From positions 2,208,001 to 2,272,000 of the forward strand of contig CAWETU010000001.1 of the NCBI GenBank assembly GCA_963812135.1: a stretch of DNA of 64,000 nt, in the 5' to 3' direction. Below the pieces are notes generated by a model. The model did no database searches, had not been told where the DNA came from, and saw only the letters and a program-made list of their open reading frames with translations. Positions 47,362 to 64,000 of this stretch are shown piece after piece (position 1 is the first letter of the stretch; each line of letters starts with the position of its first letter). The stretch comes from Vulcanimicrobiota bacterium (lineage in GTDB: Bacteria; Vulcanimicrobiota; Vulcanimicrobiia; Eremiobacterales; Eremiobacteraceae). Position numbers and translations under genes: made by a program.

Positions 47362-48782
47362 TTGATCAGATGGTTGTGGCTGGCGTCGGCGCTGTATGCG
47401 CTGGCCGCCGGCACGCTGGTGACGATCCATTGGATGCGCTGGCAGACCGGCGTGGACACGGGCGTCTACACGCAGGTCGTGCTCAACACGTTCAACGGGT
47501 TCCGCTCGACCTTCGAAAACGGGCCGCACTTCGCGGTGCACTTCTCCCCGCTGCTCGGCATCTTCTTCCCCTTGGTGGCTGTCACGCATTCTGGTCTGGC
47601 GCTGGAACTCGCGCAGGTCGCGCTCATCGCGTGCGTGCCGCTTGCGCTCTATGGCTTCGTTCTGCCTCACGTCGGCGAGGCGCTGGCGCTGCGCGTCGGC
47701 TTCATCGCGCTGCTGTATCCGCCGCTTGCCGCGATCGGCATCGGCGAATTTCATATCTTGGCATGTTTGCCGCTGCTCGTCATCGGCGCCCTGTGGGCGT
47801 TGGACCGAGGGCACGGCGCCTGGTTTGGGTTGTTCGCGGGCATGTTGTTGTTGGTGCGCGAGGACGTGCTCCTCGAATTGCTGGTCATCGGAGTGGTCGG
47901 TGGCATCGTCGCGTTACGCGCCTCGCATGGCGTGGGTTCGCTGTTCGCGTCGCCTGCGTCGCGCGGTTTGGTGGGCGCCGCGAGTATCGGGCTCGGCGTC
48001 GCGTCGGGCGCAATGGCCGGATTGTATTTCGGCGTCATCCAGCCGGCGTTCGGCCACTACGGTTGGTACCCGCTGCTCTACTATCGTTTCGGCATCACGC
48101 GCGGCTCGGTGGGCGCGCTCTCGCAGCCGCCGGTCGGCCCGCCACCGAACCCGAGCGCGTCATTGCCGCGACAGCTTTTCGAACGCTTCACGTACTTGCT
48201 CGAGGCGTTCGTGCCGCTGGCGCTGTTGCCGTTTCGCACATGGTGGTGGTTGCTTGCGGTGCCCGGCTTGACGATCGTCCTTGCGGCGACGAGCGCGTCG
48301 ATCTGGACCATGGGCTCGCAGTATGCGCTCTTGTGGGCGCCGTGGCTGCTCGTCGCGACTGCGGTCGCCGTGATCCACGTTCGCGCCACGCTGGGGGAGG
48401 CCGTGGCGCGCCGTTGGACGGGAGCTGCGATCGGCTTATGCCTTGTCTTTCTCGTCGCGATCAACCCGATGCATCTGCAATACTATTTCCGGCCGCCCTA
48501 TCACGATTTGGCTTCCGCACAGCGCGCGCTGGCGTGTGTGCCGAGAAGGGGCATCGTGTGGCGACGCACGACGAATGGTTCACCCACATCGCGGGCACCA
48601 ATCCGCTTGCCAACGGCAATGTCGTCACCGGCGTTGACTACCTCGTGTATGCCGACGACTATCCGGATGCGGCGTTCGAGCGCGAGGTCAAACCCAAGTT
48701 ACAAGCGGAGATCGCGGCCGGCCGCGTGCGCGTGTTGTGCTCGTTCGGGAGCGTGAAAGCGTATCAGAAAACGGTCGAATAA
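47362..48782 (+). CDS. DUF2079 family membrane protein (frameshift ~48555)
   Basis: GVDTGVYTQ, HFAVHFSP, EFH, VRED; multiple TM. Confidence 0.8.
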
Positions 48783-48795
48783 ATTCGACCGATAC
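48772..48795 (-). repeat. GTAG-type REP copy 4
   Basis: CGGTCGAATAAATTCGACCGATAC. Confidence 0.8.
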
Positions 48796-48869: not shown

Positions 48870-49019
48870 TTAGGGAAGCGCGTTGATCTCCGGTCGCTCG
48901 AAGACAAGCTTGGTCATCGAGACGATCGCGATGTAGTACGCGTGCATTTCGGCCCGCGTGAGCCGCTGCGTCGCGGCCGTTTGGCGTAGGTTCCCTTGGG
49001 TCAGGATCTGCTTTTTCAT
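48870..49019 (-). CDS. 49-aa small ORF MKKQILTQGNLRQTAATQRLTRAEMHAYYIAIVSMTKLVFERPEINALP
   Basis: GGAGGT RBS, upstream TTGCTC-N17-TAGAGT, downstream hairpin. Confidence 0.6.
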   Translation of the reverse strand: MKKQILTQGNLRQTAATQRLTRAEMHAYYIAIVSMTKLVFERPEINALP

Positions 49020-49117
49020 TGCCGCCACCTCCGTGGCCGTCATACTCTATATCGGTAAAACTAAGCGAGCAAGCACAACGTTACGGCTGCGCTGATGAAA
49101 GCCGCATTAGAGTCAGG

Positions 49118-49173
49118 AAAAAGAAAGAACCAGCGCTTTTACGCTGGTTCTGGTGCGGGTGCAGACCTGTCAC
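49118..49173 (-). ncRNA. Putative antisense sRNA, module 1
   Basis: TATAAT at 49184-49179; 24 nt complementary to 49293-49316; terminator AGAACCAGCG-TAAAAG-CGCTGGTTCT-TTCTTTTT. Confidence 0.65.
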
Positions 49174-49258
49174 TTATGATTATACCGTCTCCTTCGTAGA
49201 GGATCGCAAGGGGCCGGCGTCAGACCTGTGCCGCCGCCCCCTTCCGCATAGCGGAGGC

Positions 49259-49326
49259 TGGAGGCGTCGGGAATCGAACCCGAATGCACGACGTGACAGG
49301 TCCGCACCCGCACCAGCGGCGCCCCC
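49259..49326 (-). ncRNA. tRNA-like RNA, module 1 (GUC loop, G3:U70, A73)
   Basis: GGGGGCG/CGCCTCC-A acceptor, CCGC-TGGT-GCGG mini D arm, loop CTGTCAC, TCGGG-TTCGATT-CCCGA T arm; 68 nt. Confidence 0.75.
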
Positions 49327-49443: not shown

Positions 49444-50775
49444 GTGAAGCTCCTGAGAAATTCTGCCCTCGCGTTGCTGGCTTTCGTGGTCCTTGCAGGT
49501 TGCGCCGGCGGTGGCGGCGCCGGCCTTCCACCGCCCGGCCCGACCCCGACGCCTCCGGCTGCGTCAAAAATCAAATACGTCATCATCATTTTCCAAGAGA
49601 ACCGCACGCCGGACAACCTGTTCCACGGTCTGCCGGGTGCCGACATCGCGAACAGCGGCACGAATTCGATGGGCCAAGTCGTGCCGCTCATCCCTGTGGA
49701 CATCACCGCACCGTACGATCTGGACCATAGCCATAAGGGTTTTACGACCGAATACAACGGCGGCGCGATGAACGGCTGGGATCTGGTCGGCGTGAATTGT
49801 CCAAGCCACGCTTGCAATCCGCAAACCGCGTTTGGTTACGTGCCGCAGGCCGAAGTGCAACCGTACTTCACGATGGCTGAGCGCTTCACGTTCGCCGACC
49901 GGATGTTCCAGACCAATCAGGGCCCGAGCTTCCCCGCGCACCAGTTCATCATCTCGGGTACGTCGACCGATTCGGTGGGCAGCACGCTGCTGGCCGCCGA
50001 GAACCCGAACTACTTCGCCAATAACAAGCTCGATTGCGACGGCTCGACCCAGTCGCTGGTGAAGATGATCGATCCGTCGGGCAGCGAGGCGACGTCATTG
50101 CGGCCCTGCTTCGATCACCCGACGCTGTTCGACTCGCTCGATGCCAAGGGTATCACCTGGCGTTACTACGATTCGTTCAACGGCGGCCTGTGGTCCGCGC
50201 CAGACGCGATCGCGCACATCCGCAACGGCACCGACTGGAACAACGTCAGCCTGCCGAGCTCCAATATCCTGACCGACATCTCGAGCGGGCAGCTGCGCCA
50301 GGTCTCGTGGGTCATCCCGTCAGCCGCCGCTTCCGACCACGCGCTCTCAACCGATGGCAGCGGACCGGCGTGGGTGGCGTCGGTCGTCAACGCGGTCGGC
50401 CAAAGCCAGTACTGGTCTAACACCGCGATCTTCATCACGTGGGATGACTGGGGAGGTTGGTTCGACCACGTCCAGCCGCAGATGTTCAATTCATACGAGT
50501 TGAGTTTCCGGGTCCCGTTGATCGTGGTGTCGCCCTACGCGAAGCCTGCGTACGTGTCGCACGTGCAGCACGAGTACGGCAGCATCCTGAAATACGTCGA
50601 AGAGACGTATGGCCTGCCGTCGCTCGGCTACACGGATGCGCGCGCGGACGATCTTTCGGATTGCTTCAACTACAGCCAAACGCCGATCGTCTTCCAAATG
50701 ATCCCGGCGGACCGCAAGGCGGCGGACTTCATCCGCGCGCCGATGGTCAACGTGCCGCCCGACGACGATTTTTAG
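49444..50775 (+). CDS. Phospholipase C/phosphoesterase family lipoprotein
   Basis: LAGC lipobox, IIIFQENRTPDNLF, GPSFPAH, ITWDDWGGWFDHV, FRVPLIVVSPY. Confidence 0.9.
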   Translation: MKLLRNSALALLAFVVLAGCAGGGGAGLPPPGPTPTPPAASKIKYVIIIFQENRTPDNLFHGLPGADIANSGTNSMGQVVPLIPVDITAPYDLDHSHKGFTTEYNGGAMNGWDLVGVNCPSHACNPQTAFGYVPQAEVQPYFTMAERFTFADRMFQTNQGPSFPAHQFIISGTSTDSVGSTLLAAENPNYFANNKLDCDGSTQSLVKMIDPSGSEATSLRPCFDHPTLFDSLDAKGITWRYYDSFNGGLWSAPDAIAHIRNGTDWNNVSLPSSNILTDISSGQLRQVSWVIPSAAASDHALSTDGSGPAWVASVVNAVGQSQYWSNTAIFITWDDWGGWFDHVQPQMFNSYELSFRVPLIVVSPYAKPAYVSHVQHEYGSILKYVEETYGLPSLGYTDARADDLSDCFNYSQTPIVFQMIPADRKAADFIRAPMVNVPPDDDF

Positions 50776-50798
50776 GGTCGAATGAATTCGACCGCTAC
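50775..50798 (-). repeat. GTAG-type REP copy 5
   Basis: GGGTCGAATGAATTCGACCGCTAC. Confidence 0.85.
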
Positions 50799-52732: not shown

Positions 52733-52762
52733 ATGTGATCAGGGCTGAAGTCTCGCGCATTT

Positions 52763-52819
52763 GAAAACAGGTCGACCGCGCCTTTCAGCGCGGTCGATTG
52801 CTAACACTGGACCGTCACC
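52763..52819 (-). ncRNA. Putative antisense sRNA, module 2
   Basis: TTGCAG-N17-TATAAT (52852-52824); 19 nt complementary to 52943-52961; hairpin TCGACCGCGC-TGAAAG-GCGCGGTCGA then CCTGTTTT. Confidence 0.65.
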
Positions 52820-52906
52820 TTAAATTATACCGATTCCTGAAGCGAGCTGCAAGTGGGCAGCGTCTGGTCCGTGGTCGCTGCCCGCTCTCCGCTTTGTATC
52901 GGAGGC

Positions 52907-52974
52907 TGGAGGCAGCGGGACTCGAACCCGCGACACGCGGCTTGACGGTCCAGTGCCGGCACCTGCCCACCCCC
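52907..52974 (-). ncRNA. tRNA-like RNA, module 2 (GUC loop, G3:U70, A73)
   Basis: GGGGGTG/TGCCTCC-A acceptor, GGC-AGGT-GCC mini D arm, loop CCGTCAA, GCGGG-TTCGAGT-CCCGC T arm; 68 nt. Confidence 0.75.
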
Positions 52975-58945: not shown

Positions 58946-58991
58946 CGGTCGAATAAATTCGACCGCTACGTCTCTCTTATTCGACCGCTAC
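58946..58991 (-). repeat. GTAG-type REP copy 6 plus tandem half copy
   Basis: CGGTCGAATAAATTCGACCGCTAC-gtctctctt-ATTCGACCGCTAC. Confidence 0.85.
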
Positions 58992-59551: not shown

Positions 59552-59575
59552 CGGTCGAATAAATTCGACCGCTAC
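59552..59575 (-). repeat. GTAG-type REP copy 7
   Basis: CGGTCGAATAAATTCGACCGCTAC. Confidence 0.85.
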
Positions 59576-60816: not shown

Positions 60817-61422
60817 CTAGAAGTTGACCTGTGGCGCAGTCTGCGCGCCGGGCTGCGACTTGAAGTATTCCCTCGGTTTGAATTTGTCGCCGAACATGCC
60901 GGCGACGAGCACGGTGGGGAATTGTTGGCGCGTGGTGTTGAACGTCTGGGCGACCTGATTGTAGCGGTTGCGCTCGACCGCGATGCGGTTCTCCGTGCCC
61001 TCCAGCTGGGATTGCAGCTCGAGGAAATTCTCGTTGGCCTTGAGCTGGGGATAGTTCTCGACCACCGCGAGCAGGTGCGTGAGCGCGCCGCTCAGGCTGT
61101 CCTGCGCGGCTTGGAATTTGGCGAACGCGGCGGGATCGGTCGGCAGGTTCGAGGCGTTGACGTTGAGCTGGCCGACCTTGGCGCGCGCTTCGGCGACCTG
61201 CGTGTACGTGCTCTTCTCGAAATTCGCGACGCCTTTGACGGTCGCCACCAAGTTCGGGATGAGGTCGGCGCGCCGCTGGTAGACGTTTTCGACTTGCGCC
61301 CACTGCGCATCGACGGCTTGGCTCAGCGACACGAGATTGTTGTACGTGCTCGCCAAAAAGAGGCCGACGACGGCGATGATGAGCACGATGGCGATCAGAC
61401 AGCCTAGTAGACCGCGACTCAT
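60817..61422 (-). CDS. lemA: LemA family protein
   Basis: YQRRADLIPNLV, ENYPQLKANENF, LEGTENRI. Confidence 0.95.
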   Translation of the reverse strand: MSRGLLGCLIAIVLIIAVVGLFLASTYNNLVSLSQAVDAQWAQVENVYQRRADLIPNLVATVKGVANFEKSTYTQVAEARAKVGQLNVNASNLPTDPAAFAKFQAAQDSLSGALTHLLAVVENYPQLKANENFLELQSQLEGTENRIAVERNRYNQVAQTFNTTRQQFPTVLVAGMFGDKFKPREYFKSQPGAQTAPQVNF

Positions 61423-61493
61423 CCTTGTCCCCCTTAAGGTCAGCTCGCGCGATGTAGGGGTCAGGTTCCGTCGGGGCTTCGAACTCCCCTCGG

Positions 61494-61544
61494 AAAAGAA
61501 GAAACCAGCCTCGTTTGGCTGGTTCCAGCGCTGGCTCGTCAAGC
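61494..61544 (-). ncRNA. Orphan antisense-type sRNA related to modules 1 and 2
   Basis: TATAAT 61556-51, body GCTTGACGAGCCAGCGCTG, terminator GAACCAGCC-AAACGA-GGCTGGTT-TCTTCTTTT similar to module 1. Confidence 0.55.
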
Positions 61545-61770
61545 AAAGCCATTATAGCGCCCGTGTTTGTTGGCAATAGGGTGTGAGGAGAGAAGGTCAA
61601 GGTGAGCTTGTCGTCACCTGGATAGAGATTCCGGCAGACGAGCCGGTCGTCAGCGTTGAATGCTTACTGTCTGGCCCAGCTTTGTCGACACGCTACGCTC
61701 TTGCGGAGAGCGTTGTGTTTTGGCTTTTTCATTGTGCTGATATTGTAGCGCTGGAGCGGATTTGGTCAAT

Positions 61771-61794
61771 CGGTCGAACAAATTCGACCGCTAC
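61771..61794 (-). repeat. GTAG-type REP copy 8
   Basis: CGGTCGAACAAATTCGACCGCTAC. Confidence 0.85.
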
Positions 61795-61806: not shown

Positions 61807-62055
61807 TCAGCGCTTGCTGCGGCTTTGGCTCGTGCGCGGCGCGGACCCGGACGGACCGCGGCTGGGCTGTGCGCATGCTTTCTGAAGGCTCGCCGGTTCG
61901 TACTCGAGGTAATAGTCAATCGCATCGCGGGTAAGGCGAGCGACTTCTTGGCGCGTTGCGCGAGCGACCGCGATTGCCACCTCGGGTCTGACGACGGCGG
62001 CATAGCCGGTTCGAGTTTTCTGGATACTAAATCGGAAGCCGCGGTGCTCTATCAT
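61807..62055 (-). CDS. hicB: HicB-like antitoxin
   Basis: TGYAAVVRPE..ARATRQEVARLTRDAIDYYLE; ATGA overlap with hicA. Confidence 0.7.
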   Translation of the reverse strand: MIEHRGFRFSIQKTRTGYAAVVRPEVAIAVARATRQEVARLTRDAIDYYLEYEPASLQKACAQPSRGPSGSAPRTSQSRSKR

Positions 62056-62249
62056 AGACGTTCAATCCCCATGGTTCGGAAAATAGATTTCAGCAGACCA
62101 ATCGGCTGTTCCCGGTCGTCATTGCCGGCCAAGACGACGACTCCGCTCCGCTTCGGATGTTTCCATATTTGGTGGCTGCCGCGTTGTCGAGCGACATACC
62201 ACCCGTTCTTGAGCAGACGCGCGCGAATCTCTCGGTTTTTGGGCGGCAT
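62052..62249 (-). CDS. hicA: HicA family toxin
   Basis: LLKNGW..RQRGSHQIWKHP..GLLKSIF. Confidence 0.9.
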   Translation of the reverse strand: MPPKNREIRARLLKNGWYVARQRGSHQIWKHPKRSGVVVLAGNDDREQPIGLLKSIFRTMGIERL

Positions 62250-62295: not shown

Positions 62296-62319
62296 CGGTC
62301 GAATAAATTCGACCGCTAC
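62296..62319 (-). repeat. GTAG-type REP copy 9
   Basis: CGGTCGAATAAATTCGACCGCTAC. Confidence 0.85.
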
Positions 62320-64000
62320 TCATGGCGTGGAGAAGCGGACGACTTGCGACGAGCTGCGCGTCCCGTCGGTCACCACGATCTTCACTTGGTGCTTGCGTAC
62401 GTGTGGTTCGAGCAAGACGTCGAACGACTTGGCGTTCGTTTCGAAGACGCGGTCGATCCACGTCTTGCCGTTGTCGGACGAGTACAGGACGACGATAGCG
62501 TCGTGGCGCTGTTCGGTTGTGACCGTCCACGTGACGTGGACGGTTCCATTATGCGGTTGGACGGTATTCGGTCGAATCAATTCGACCGCTACATGGACGG
62601 TTGGTGCGCTGCGCGCTGAGTTGCTGGCTTGCGAGCACCGCGCTGCCCGGGCCGACGACGTCCACGCGCGCAAGCGTTGCGTCGCGGGATTCGATAACCG
62701 AACGCGATGAGGTTGCGATCTTCCTTTGTGACGGGCAAGCGCCACAGCGGATTGAACTGAAACGTCAAGGGGTATGCCGAAAGCGTCGTAGGCGACGATG
62801 TCGTAGTCAGCTGGCTTCCGGCTGTGAGATCCGCGTGACCGTCAGCGTATAGAACGCGCCGAAGACCGCGGTGTTCAGCTTGTTGTACCGGAACTGCACG
62901 CCGCGGACCAACAAGACCGGCGGATCGAGCGGTTGGGTCAACGTGTTGAGCAAGTGCCAGTACGTGCACTCGGTGATCCACTTCTCGGGATCCACCGGGC
63001 CGGCGGGGTTGGCGACCGCCATCGGCCAGTTAGCTGGGATCGCGGTGTTGGGCGACGGCCCTTTGCCAGACGCGCCCATGAGCGGGAACGACTTATCCTT
63101 GCGCACGCGCGCGGCCAGCACGCTGGCGGTCGTGAGGCGCTCGCCGTTAGCGATGAGATCCTGTTTGTTGTGGTAGTCAAGGTCGCACTCGGCCAGCATT
63201 TCAGGCGAGCTCCAACTCGCCACCGGGATGCTGTGGGTTAATTCGTGCCCGACGGTCTGGAAGTTCATGAATTCCGGGATGAGGATAAGCTTGGTCGTGA
63301 CCGTGATGCCAAGCGAATCCGGCGGCGCGATCGCGAAGTAGTCGTGATCGCTGAGCACGGCGACCGTGCGGCCTGCGCCGTCGATGATGCCGCTGGTGGT
63401 CAGCTGGTCGGTGATGGCGGCCTCGAGTTTTTCGCGCTCGTGGATGAGTCTGTTCGCGGTGACGGTCGCATCGCTCACGTTCGCGAGGTGCTTCGCAAGG
63501 AAGCCAAGGATCGCATCGGTCTTGTCTTGCGACAGATCTTTATTATGGAAATCGAATAGCTCGCGGATGACGGTCGGCAAGTCCCACGGCTTGAGCGGAT
63601 AGAAATCGGGGACGTACTTGTGAGTGTCTTGCGCGATGGCGATCGTGCGCTATCGTGAGATCGCGTTTGGTCGCCGGCGTGAAGAACGACGAATCGTACG
63701 ACAGCAGTAGCGGGATGTAGCGGATGGTAGGCCCGTGCGTGACCTCGGCGTGGCCGTCGACGATGACCTTGGCGTCGTCGATCGGCGCGCCTTGGTCGTC
63801 GATGAGCTGGTCGACGATGCGGTAGTCGGTGTCGGGCAAGAATGTGAAGGTCGAATTCGCAGGCACGCCGGTCGGCGCTGGAAGTTTGACTTTCACGTGC
63901 TGCCACGAACCGGCAGGTGGGCGAATGGGGATATTGTCGAGCACGTCGCTCGTGAAGATCGTCTTTTGGACGGTGCCGGATTCGCCGGTGAAGCGCATCC
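62320..64000 (-). CDS. Large hypothetical protein, 3' part, with HExxH motif (several frameshifts; starts beyond window)
   Basis: ORF pieces 63543..63998, 62807..63580 (TVGHELTHS), 62320..62745 (YSSDNGKTW Ig-like end). Confidence 0.6.
62569..62592 (-). repeat. GTAG-type REP copy 10 (intragenic)
   Basis: CGGTCGAATCAATTCGACCGCTAC. Confidence 0.85.

Follow-up and report, generated by a model that had tools for sequence, protein, structure and literature searches.

The 64,000-nucleotide (nt) stretch analysed here, which we call the window (contig CAWETU010000001.1 of the Vulcanimicrobiota bacterium assembly GCA_963812135.1, positions 2,208,001 to 2,272,000 of the forward strand), carries a short element on its minus strand between a hicAB toxin-antitoxin (TA) pair and lemA. 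This element, unit 3, consists of a promoter-like start, an antisense segment and a terminator, and its homology makes it almost certain that it descends from the antisense unit of a two-RNA cassette, of which the same window holds two complete copies, modules 1 and 2. In a complete cassette, a 68-nt cloverleaf RNA would come first, followed at a distance of about 85-95 nt from its 3′ end by a shorter RNA (about 50 nt) with a promoter of its own. Unit 3 is larger than an earlier sequence-only reading had stated and comprises the following parts.

61489..61580, minus strand: unit 3 as a whole
61571..61576, minus strand: -35-like hexamer TTGCCA, aligned by nhmmer to the TTGCnn box of the family
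61557..61570, minus strand: 14-nt promoter spacer, against a family norm of 17; the nhmmer alignment shows 3 nt missing here
61551..61556, minus strand: -10 box, a perfect TATAAT, read from the sequence
61517..61544, minus strand: antisense segment GCUUGACGAGCCAGCGCUGGAACCAGCC, 28 nt, from the profile alignment and the complementarity pattern of the family
61501..61526, minus strand: terminator hairpin GGAACCAGCC-AAACGA-GGCTGGTTTC, a 10-bp stem including one G.U with the loop AAACGA, from a terminator scan
61494..61500, minus strand: U-rich tail UUCUUUU, from the sequence and the terminator scan

Unit 3 and its relatives in the window

The elements listed in the sequence-only reading (TATAAT, the 19-mer, hairpin, tail and TTGCCA) all stand on the minus strand, base for base. 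Read from 61580, unit 3 opens with CCTA followed by TTGCCA, and the CCCTA directly 5′ of this hexamer agrees with the family motif CCTATTGC. GGCTTT (6 nt) separates TATAAT from the 19-mer GCTTGACGAGCCAGCGCTG at 61544-61526 (minus strand). The 28-nt antisense segment begins with GCUUGACG, and its 3′ end is at the same time the 5′ arm of the terminator; directly 3′ of the hairpin stands TTCTTTTCC (DNA of the U-run: TTCTTTT). This terminator design, in which a 5′ arm of ACCAGC/ACCACC type forms the antisense end and a U-run follows, matches that of the loci L013, L017, and L022. The 52-nt RNA from 61545 to 61494 is predicted to keep its 5′ part mostly open and to form the terminator hairpin (-19.1 kcal/mol, z = -2.38). 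TATAAT is rare in this genome, with 157 copies in all and five in the window, where each of the three units has one as its -10 box.

An nhmmer profile of 17 units from other loci, from which unit 3 was excluded, detects window positions 61489-61580 in the 2.8-Mb genome at E=8.4e-8 and 32.4 bits, while module 2's own unit scores 34.9 bits; the sequence-only model R2, likewise made without unit 3, detects it at E=7e-10. Detection at E=8e-8 by a profile to which it had not contributed makes unit 3 a true homologue of the module-1 and module-2 units, as the earlier note had proposed in calling it a third unit of the same family. The alignment spans the -35 box, -10 box, antisense segment, terminator, and U-run, and departs from the family in two places: the promoter spacer lacks 3 nt, and 3 nt are inserted between TGAC and the -10 box. 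The module-1 terminator quoted for comparison in that note is located at 49127-49150 (minus strand). Of the whole-cassette profile, positions 147-239 alone align with unit 3 and nothing cassette-derived is recognisable upstream of the -35 box. Unit 3 is the first recognised solitary member of the cassette family.

The poor promoter spacing noted before is borne out by the family. The form TTGCnn-N17-TAtaAT occurs in 16 of the 17 units, the exception being module 1 with N19; in unit 3 both boxes are there, the spacer has 14 nt, and this spacer contains no TG extension. With a spacer 3 nt too short, unit 3 probably has weak expression, or is expressed solely as the 3′-terminal part of a longer RNA begun upstream. 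The N17 design is shared by two protein-gene promoters of the window, and TTGCnn-N17-TAtaAT is therefore the ordinary look of a promoter in this organism.

The two complete cassettes of the window are likewise encoded on the minus strand.

49259..49326, minus strand: module-1 tRNA-like RNA, 68 nt, 66.2 bits with the covariance model R1
49114..49213, minus strand: module-1 antisense unit, found with R2, 24-nt complementarity at 96% (repeat I6)
52907..52974, minus strand: module-2 tRNA-like RNA, 68 nt, 83.7 bits with R1, the best in-genome pairing partner of unit 3
52759..52857, minus strand: module-2 antisense unit, found with R2, 13-nt core complementarity

Both modules share one order: a promoter-like site, the 68-nt RNA, a hairpin that starts with GCCTCCG right after the 3′ A, a second hairpin, and TTGCnn-spacer-TATAAT. 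A TGAC-initial stretch 5-6 nt past TATAAT is reverse-complementary to a portion of the 68-nt RNA, and the terminator follows. ARAGORN calls no tRNA or transfer-messenger RNA (tmRNA) gene in the window, and Rfam gives no match there at gathering score. With permissive settings, the 68-nt RNAs reach sub-threshold Rfam scores for tmRNA (27.5, gathering 47; this match is the module-1 RNA), tmRNA_permuted (29.3, gathering 47), tRNA (18.6, gathering 29), and mascRNA (21.1). Nothing in Rfam, T-box riboswitch included, matches the surroundings of unit 3, whether at gathering score or with the limit relaxed to E=5. The real tmRNA, tRNA-Asp(GUC), and three tRNA-Ala genes of this genome are located elsewhere, and the module-1 acceptor stem GGGGGCG/CGCCTCCA is identical to that of the tmRNA. 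A comparison for module 1 gave no clean empty site, the flanks being rearranged among the genus members. Just downstream of module 1 lies a 49-codon open reading frame (ORF) with a GGAGG ribosome site (48870-49019, minus strand), whose DNA is 78-80% conserved in three genus relatives and which in one of these relatives (G006:C61) lies 400 nt upstream of another cassette.

On its upstream and downstream sides, unit 3 is framed by the following features.

62052..62249, minus strand: hicA toxin gene (Pfam HicA_toxin, E=1.4e-15)
61807..62055, minus strand: putative hicB-like partner gene, an ORF of 82 amino acids, no Pfam match
61771..61794, no strand assigned: palindrome like a repetitive extragenic palindrome (REP), of the GTAGCGGTCGAAnnnnTTCGACCG family, just after the hicB-like gene (repeat families D1 and D2)
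61742..61769, minus strand: promoter-like site TTGACC-N16-TACAAT, 10 of 12 consensus matches, 185 nt upstream of unit 3
60817..61422, minus strand: lemA (Pfam LemA, E=3e-56), downstream of unit 3

The previously stated distance of about 250 nt between unit 3 and hicAB is correct, and HicA is genuine by Pfam. An RNA starting from the site at 61769-61742 is predicted to be about 240 nt long, to end at the unit-3 terminator and to include the antisense segment. The lemA coding region, after which two TPM-domain genes come, is conserved in five of six other genomes of the genus (78-84% identity), with no conservation of the upstream DNA: the five same-genus lemA upstream regions contain no unit (nhmmer, E<=1), no hicAB, and no match to the upstream DNA found here. 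Because the DNA upstream of lemA is not shared by any of these five relatives, unit 3 lies in a strain-specific insertion together with hicAB and REP-like palindromes.

The two-RNA cassette family

A pattern made from the T arm, the 3′ acceptor strand, and the first hairpin has matches in 13 of 61 related genomes. The covariance model R1, built from ten 68-nt members, describes a cloverleaf that has an acceptor stem of 7 bp, a D stem of 3-4 bp capped by an NGGT loop, a singly bulged 9-bp arm whose loop has 7 nt, a T stem of 5 bp that carries a TTCGANT loop, and A73; a variable loop is absent. In the alignment 94.6% of the cells are paired, compared with 41-54% when the partners are slid, and none of 500 shuffles reaches the observed values; double-sided changes occur at 12 of the 24 pairs, and G3:U70 is found in 10 of 10 sequences. 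Judged by this covariation, the 68-nt tRNA-like RNA is a real structured RNA. It displays alanine identity marks (G1-C72, G2-C71, G3.U70, G4-C69, and A73) and a canonical T arm, and its loop carries GUC in most members, with GUA, GCG, GCC, and GAU occurring as well.

R1 finds 24 places in 13 of the 32 genomes of the taxonomic family, one to four per genome, in searches that scored 150 of about 5000 first-look candidates per genome. No place is found in G005, a 97%-complete genome of the same genus, and 19 of the 32 family genomes are without a cassette. Cassette-bearing public contigs are labelled as Candidatus Eremiobacteraeota/Vulcanimicrobiota metagenome-assembled genomes (MAGs; Baltobacteraceae, Cybelea, Aquilonibacter). 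One complete cassette (L077; R1 62.7 bits, unit E=8e-16) sits on a 9-kb contig labelled Candidatus Binatus sp., of another phylum, and reflects either horizontal transfer or a binning error.

Public MAG contigs frequently contain a second subtype (L060, L063, L067, L075, L080, L090, L108-L111, L118, L121, and L124). Its tRNA-like RNA is 72-73 nt long and has a GGGGCGC/GCGCTCC-A acceptor (GGGGCGC...GCGCTCCA) with G3:U70 and a loop containing GAUA, GACA, or GAGA; the spacer is shorter, the terminator CGAGGCGCCGCAGTAATGCGGCGCCTCG is conserved, and the downstream unit covaries with loop and arm. Some of these RNAs are called tRNA-Ile(GAU) by ARAGORN.

The central property of the family is complementarity between its two RNAs. 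In all 17 modules collected first, a count from which L019, a copy without its 5′ half, had been left out beforehand, the unit contains a best complementary stretch, which measures 14-31 nt when G.U is taken as pairing and in some modules includes a few mismatches. Its target comprises the D arm, the loop as far as A37, and the long arm's 5′ strand, though sequences differ widely between modules. Eight of eight further tRNA-like RNAs show the same complementarity, which brings the total to 25 of 25. In a matrix of predicted duplexes, cognate pairs have a mean of -51.2 kcal/mol (range -39.8 to -61.8) compared with -31.5 kcal/mol for non-cognate pairs (standard deviation 8.3, 5th percentile -46.1), and the cognate ranks first in 14 of 17 rows. 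Over 589 positions of the cognate duplexes, with G.U and A.C scored alike, we count 520 Watson-Crick pairs, 32 G.U, 6 A.C, and 31 others. This excess of G.U over A.C indicates pairing between RNAs of the annotated strand rather than an inverted repeat at the DNA level. Moreover, the loop of hairpin 2, which belongs to the 3′ trailer of the tRNA-like RNA itself, repeats the antisense core: complementarity of at least 9 nt is seen in 13 of 24 cognate combinations versus 14.5% of the non-cognate ones.

The 49 ORFs flanking the cassettes include no conserved protein partner, no recurring family, and no conserved recombinase; the neighbours include NusA, GroEL, DnaB, transporters, and dehydrogenases. 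Two cassettes, L044 (G003:C73) and L058 (G002:C69), occupy the same chromosomal site, with PaaX, metallo-beta-lactamase, and 3-hydroxyacyl-CoA-dehydrogenase flanks. Their acceptor stem is kept, their long arm and loop are entirely different (GCC versus GUC), and their units are altered to match. This matched divergence shows that the specificity region turns over fast. In the full texts searched, outside which most subscription journals lie, nothing was found on a tRNA-like RNA paired with an antisense RNA of its own. We take the two-RNA cassette of soil Eremiobacterota to be previously undescribed.

Partners of unit 3 and solitary units

No tRNA-like domain precedes unit 3, in line with the earlier reading. 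Run over the whole window with filters off, R1 returns modules 2 (83.7 bits) and 1 (66.2 bits) only, the next match scoring 12.7; in the genome search, at the candidate depth given above, modules 1 and 2 are likewise the only matches above 35 bits. A supposed degenerate tRNA-like remnant upstream of unit 3, consisting of an 8-nt match, GGCTCGTC, at about 61629-61636 and three TGACGA words, was rejected; neither R1 nor the full-cassette profile supports it.

The 16 of 19 pairing positions that had been claimed between the 19-mer and the module-2 tRNA-like RNA are reproduced (15 Watson-Crick pairs and one G.U, three positions unpaired), with eight contiguous pairs over the loop. This value is not above the genome background, in which 17-18 of 19 positions pair at no fewer than 11 unrelated sites. 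The module-1 tRNA-like RNA pairs at 14 of 19 positions. In a genome scan with the 28-nt segment, the module-2 site pairs at 23 of 28 positions and ties for the best non-self score with complements of other solitary units and one random site. The perfect target of unit 3, GGCTGGTTCCAGCGCTGGCTCGTCAAGC, has no other occurrence in the genome; allowing up to three mismatches, 400 other genomes of the phylum give two matches, which is the level of a reversed-pattern control. The exact 19-mer has 16 matches in metagenome contigs, none of them with a family profile match and all in unrelated contexts. The earlier reading had proposed a search of the genome for a cloverleaf target, the genuine tRNA-Asp included: a cognate cloverleaf was not found at the search depth given above, and tRNA-Asp, with pairing at 14 of 19 positions only, was rejected as a target.

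A cognate tRNA-like gene for unit 3 would be GGTTCCAGCGCTGGCTCGTCAAGC-like. Among the predicted duplexes of unit 3 with 25 tRNA-like RNAs, the best are those with L022 (-44.2 kcal/mol), module 2 (-42.0), L054 (-41.6), and L044 (-38.8), and the module-2 value is the same as that of module 2 with its own weak unit. According to these models, unit 3 can pair with the module-2 tRNA-like RNA only partially, and the searches make it very probable that this genome holds no cognate for it.

Unit 3 is not alone in this state. R2 detects 34 unit places in 15 of the 32 genomes of the taxonomic family, one of them in a genome flagged unpublished, which is counted here and left out further on. Eighteen of the 34 units follow an intact tRNA-like RNA (R1 of at least 59 bits), and three have a weak remnant only (22.9-36.7 bits). 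Ten have no upstream R1 match: unit 3, a second unit of this genome at C1:1931631-1931725 together with its copies on C3 and C4, three tandem units in G029, and one unit each in G028, G022, and G011. The remaining three places stay unassigned (one at a contig end, one whose flank was not taken in, and the one in the unpublished genome). Partner-less units thus make up at least 10 of the 34 and are common in the family. None of the 25 intact tRNA-like RNAs, in turn, is without a unit. Loss of the partner with retention of the unit, as supposed earlier for unit 3, is thus a recurring pattern in the family.

The solitary unit at G000:C1:1931631-1931725 (plus strand) lies directly after a methylmalonyl-CoA-epimerase-like gene and consists of TTGCAA-N17-TATAGT, TGACGGGTCTACGCTGGCACCAGCC, and a terminator; its near-identical copies are at C3:3007-3101 and C4:2516-2610. 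Its best partners in other genomes are L012 (-58.7 kcal/mol) and L018 (-56.4), and in this genome module 1 (-48.6). A deleted cassette 10.6 kb past the end of the window (G000:C1:2282598-2282790, minus strand) has kept both promoters, hairpin 2, and an intact unit; of its tRNA-like RNA, the 5′ third (about the first 27 nt) is kept, and the loop, T arm, and 3′ acceptor strand are lost. The three tandem units of G029 (L146, 1805-2265, plus strand; G029:C1, about 331.4-331.9 kb) each have their own TTGC-N16-18-TATA box and stand back to back with a complete cassette. The same genome has three further complete cassettes, two of them within 6 kb.

Possible roles of the cassette and of unit 3

The asymmetry by which units outlive the tRNA-like RNAs, while the reverse is not seen, fits a toxin-antidote logic, and partner-less antidote genes such as unit 3 would be its strongest indirect sign. 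We tentatively favour, at slightly less than an even chance, a reading in which the cassette is an all-RNA toxin-antidote-like pair and unit 3, a solitary copy of its small-RNA gene, is the orphan antidote. That the cassette family works as a poison-antidote pair is, taken on its own, a possibility to which we give somewhat less credit still. In such a pair, the 5′ UGAC of the 50-nt RNA would meet the cloverleaf loop, and its body would pair with two parts, the D arm and the anticodon arm's 5′ strand; the duplex would open the D arm and the long arm and thereby unfold the cloverleaf. The 68-nt mimic would be matured like a tRNA and might be charged by alanyl-tRNA synthetase (AlaRS), because G3:U70 in an acceptor/T minihelix is enough for AlaRS charging. 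If left free, it would harm translation, either by carrying alanine to wrong codons (Asp or others) or by titrating SmpB, AlaRS, or EF-Tu, as a message-less tmRNA does, and its neutralisation would fall to the antisense RNA. On this view unit 3, placed in the strain-specific hicA insertion before lemA, would be an antidote gene left behind by the loss of its poison gene. That unit 3 is still active in trans seems unlikely. The broader proposal, that Eremiobacterota carry an RNA-only addiction or immunity system with an alanine-accepting tRNA/tmRNA mimic as poison, a 50-nt antisense RNA as antidote, and solitary units and arrays that immunise against related cassettes, is doubtful at this stage.

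Several observations weigh against the toxin-antidote reading. Many members have C at loop position 33, and the arm exceeds a tRNA anticodon stem by 4 bp, two features that speak against decoding on the ribosome; with C rather than U at this position and an arm of 9 bp, the earlier interpretation of the loop as a GUC anticodon is shaky as well. Module 1 and the L015 cassette, which belongs to another genus, have flanking genes in common; long-term vertical inheritance of the cassette is thus possible, which is compatible with a host function no less than with an addiction module. The small RNA could also serve a purpose of its own, as solitary units that have good promoters, such as the three tandem ones of G029, might indicate. 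All duplexes of unit 3 are weaker than typical cognates, the best in-genome value (-42.0 kcal/mol) lying within the non-cognate range. Finally, a divergent partner could be missed at the candidate depth of the R1 searches.

Part of this evidence would suit a regulatory pair, in which the mimic has a useful job (alanyl-tRNA supply or sensing, or trans-translation), the small RNA acts as the antisense regulator of this RNA, and unit 3 is a spare or decaying copy of that regulator. The shared flanks of module 1 and L015 across genera agree with it, the hairpin-2 loop complementarity in the 3′ trailer of the mimic suggests a built-in control of maturation, and strict co-occurrence with covariation fits any obligatory pair. 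However, a host regulator is at odds with the patchy distribution, the absence from 19 of 32 family genomes and from the nearly complete G005 included, with several divergent copies per genome, with the fast divergence of the specificity region at one orthologous locus (L044 versus L058), and with many partner-less units in the face of no unit-less mimic, and we hold a regulatory pair to be fairly improbable. Another reading makes unit 3 an active trans-acting antidote, an anti-addiction or immunity RNA that is made either from its own TATAAT or as the terminal part of the RNA begun at 61769-61742 and pairs with the module-2 mimic or with incoming mimics. Its -10 box is perfect, its terminator is intact, its profile score (32.4 bits) is as good as that of the module-2 unit (34.9), its duplex with module 2 equals that of module 2's own unit and includes the eight contiguous loop pairs, and solitary units are frequent and often have N16-18 promoters. 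Such activity is nonetheless distinctly unlikely in view of the 14-nt spacer without TG extension, the four of 19 positions that are not Watson-Crick pairs with module 2 (three unpaired, one G.U), the duplex energy inside the non-cognate distribution, and the lack of a cognate in 400 genomes of the phylum or in metagenome contigs.

Two further explanations dispense with antisense pairing by unit 3. It might be a mere terminator of hicAB or an attenuator or leader of lemA, with a chance terminator resemblance to modules 1 and 2. Its hairpin and U-run indeed stand 72 nt before the lemA start and after hicAB, all on the same strand; the hairpin will terminate whatever arrives from upstream, and unit 3 surely still supplies a terminator between hicAB and lemA. 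As an account of its origin, though, chance is already contradicted by a similarity (E=8e-8) that takes in both promoter boxes and the 28-nt segment, and none of the five same-genus lemA upstream regions has such an element. Across the family, the downstream gene is convergent in nine of the 13 loci with a Pfam-supported neighbour, two of the nine being orthologous to each other. The unit terminator is therefore not a general attenuator of the downstream gene, an attenuator role for the family was rejected on this ground, and the explanation as a whole is very improbable. Scarcely credible, finally, is the notion that the complementarity stems from inverted repeats acting as DNA, such as an invertible promoter or a recombination site. 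Modules 1 and 2 do show 24- and 13-bp inverted repeats flanking a promoter, but the strand bias of 32 G.U versus 6 A.C is unexpected for DNA repeats, unit 3 and the other solitary units are single-armed, and no conserved recombinase lies nearby.

If the toxin-antidote reading is right, the cassette would be the first toxin-antidote pair with a tRNA-shaped RNA toxin and no protein, and alanine identity (G3:U70), tmRNA-like mimicry, and antisense control would be joined in a single cassette that is compact and portable. Should the toxin idea fail, the family is still a new and well-supported pair of structured RNAs from a phylum with almost no cultured members.

Among known systems, type I TA loci with a neighbouring, non-overlapping antisense RNA (tisB/istR-1, shoB/ohsC, and zor/orz) direct this RNA against the mRNA of a toxic peptide. 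The cassette resembles them in having a small RNA with its own promoter and terminator beside its target, pairing over about 15-25 nt, and several diverged copies per genome. In contrast to type I loci, the target in the cassette is a non-coding cloverleaf RNA, no conserved peptide gene is present, and both genes are arranged in tandem on the same strand. RNA-RNA pairs of "type VIII" comprise SdsR/RyeA, which overlap in cis, and CreT/CreA, in which CreA needs Cas proteins; we know of no tRNA-shaped toxin among them. As in these pairs, both poison and antidote of the proposed cassette would be RNA, and neutralisation would proceed by base pairing. Orphan antitoxins and immunity genes serve as anti-addiction modules, and antidote genes outlive poison genes, sometimes in arrays; to our knowledge, every such orphan antidote is either a protein gene or a type I antisense RNA. 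G029, where three solitary units stand in tandem beside a full cassette, recalls this situation, a likeness that here concerns the genes alone.

The 68-nt RNA itself has two counterparts in published accounts. Like the tmRNA of mycobacteriophage DS6A that consists only of the tRNA-like domain (TLD) and like engineered TLD RNAs (PMC4131195), it is short and has an alanine-type acceptor and T arm but no coding part. TLD-only RNA is described there as strongly inhibiting tmRNA, perhaps via SmpB titration. Unlike TLD-only tmRNA, the cassette RNAs have a D hairpin, a 9-bp arm with a 7-nt loop, and a dedicated antisense RNA, and the Rfam gathering score of 47 is not reached. With the allo-tRNAs (Mukai et al, 2017; PMC5389517) they share alanine identity combined with non-alanine "anticodons". 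These allo-tRNAs and irregular G3:U70 tRNAs of soil bacteria come from soil metagenomes and are often found near TA genes, and some variants, two according to the same account, were lethal in E. coli. Whereas allo-tRNAs have 8/4 or 9/3 acceptor/T stems (PMC5389517), the cassette RNAs have 7/5 with a shrunken D arm. The PMC5389517 text contains "antisense" 0 times and names no antisense partner for allo-tRNAs.

Minor features around unit 3

The REP-like palindrome next to the hicB-like gene, (GTAGCG)GTCGAAnnnnTTCGACCG, has seven copies in the last 20 kb of the window (48772-48795, 50775-50798, 58946-58969, 59552-59575, 61771-61794, 62296-62319, and 62569-62592). It has dozens of BLAST matches over this genome and the genus relatives, brackets the hicAB cassette, and occurs in one copy just upstream of the tmRNA gene. 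The promoter-like site TTGACC-N16-TACAAT (61742-61769, minus strand), after the hicB-like gene, precedes a 22-codon ORF at 61654-61722 (minus strand) for a very basic peptide (MKKPKHNALRK...), and a plus-strand terminator-like hairpin with a T-rich tail lies at 61695-61713.

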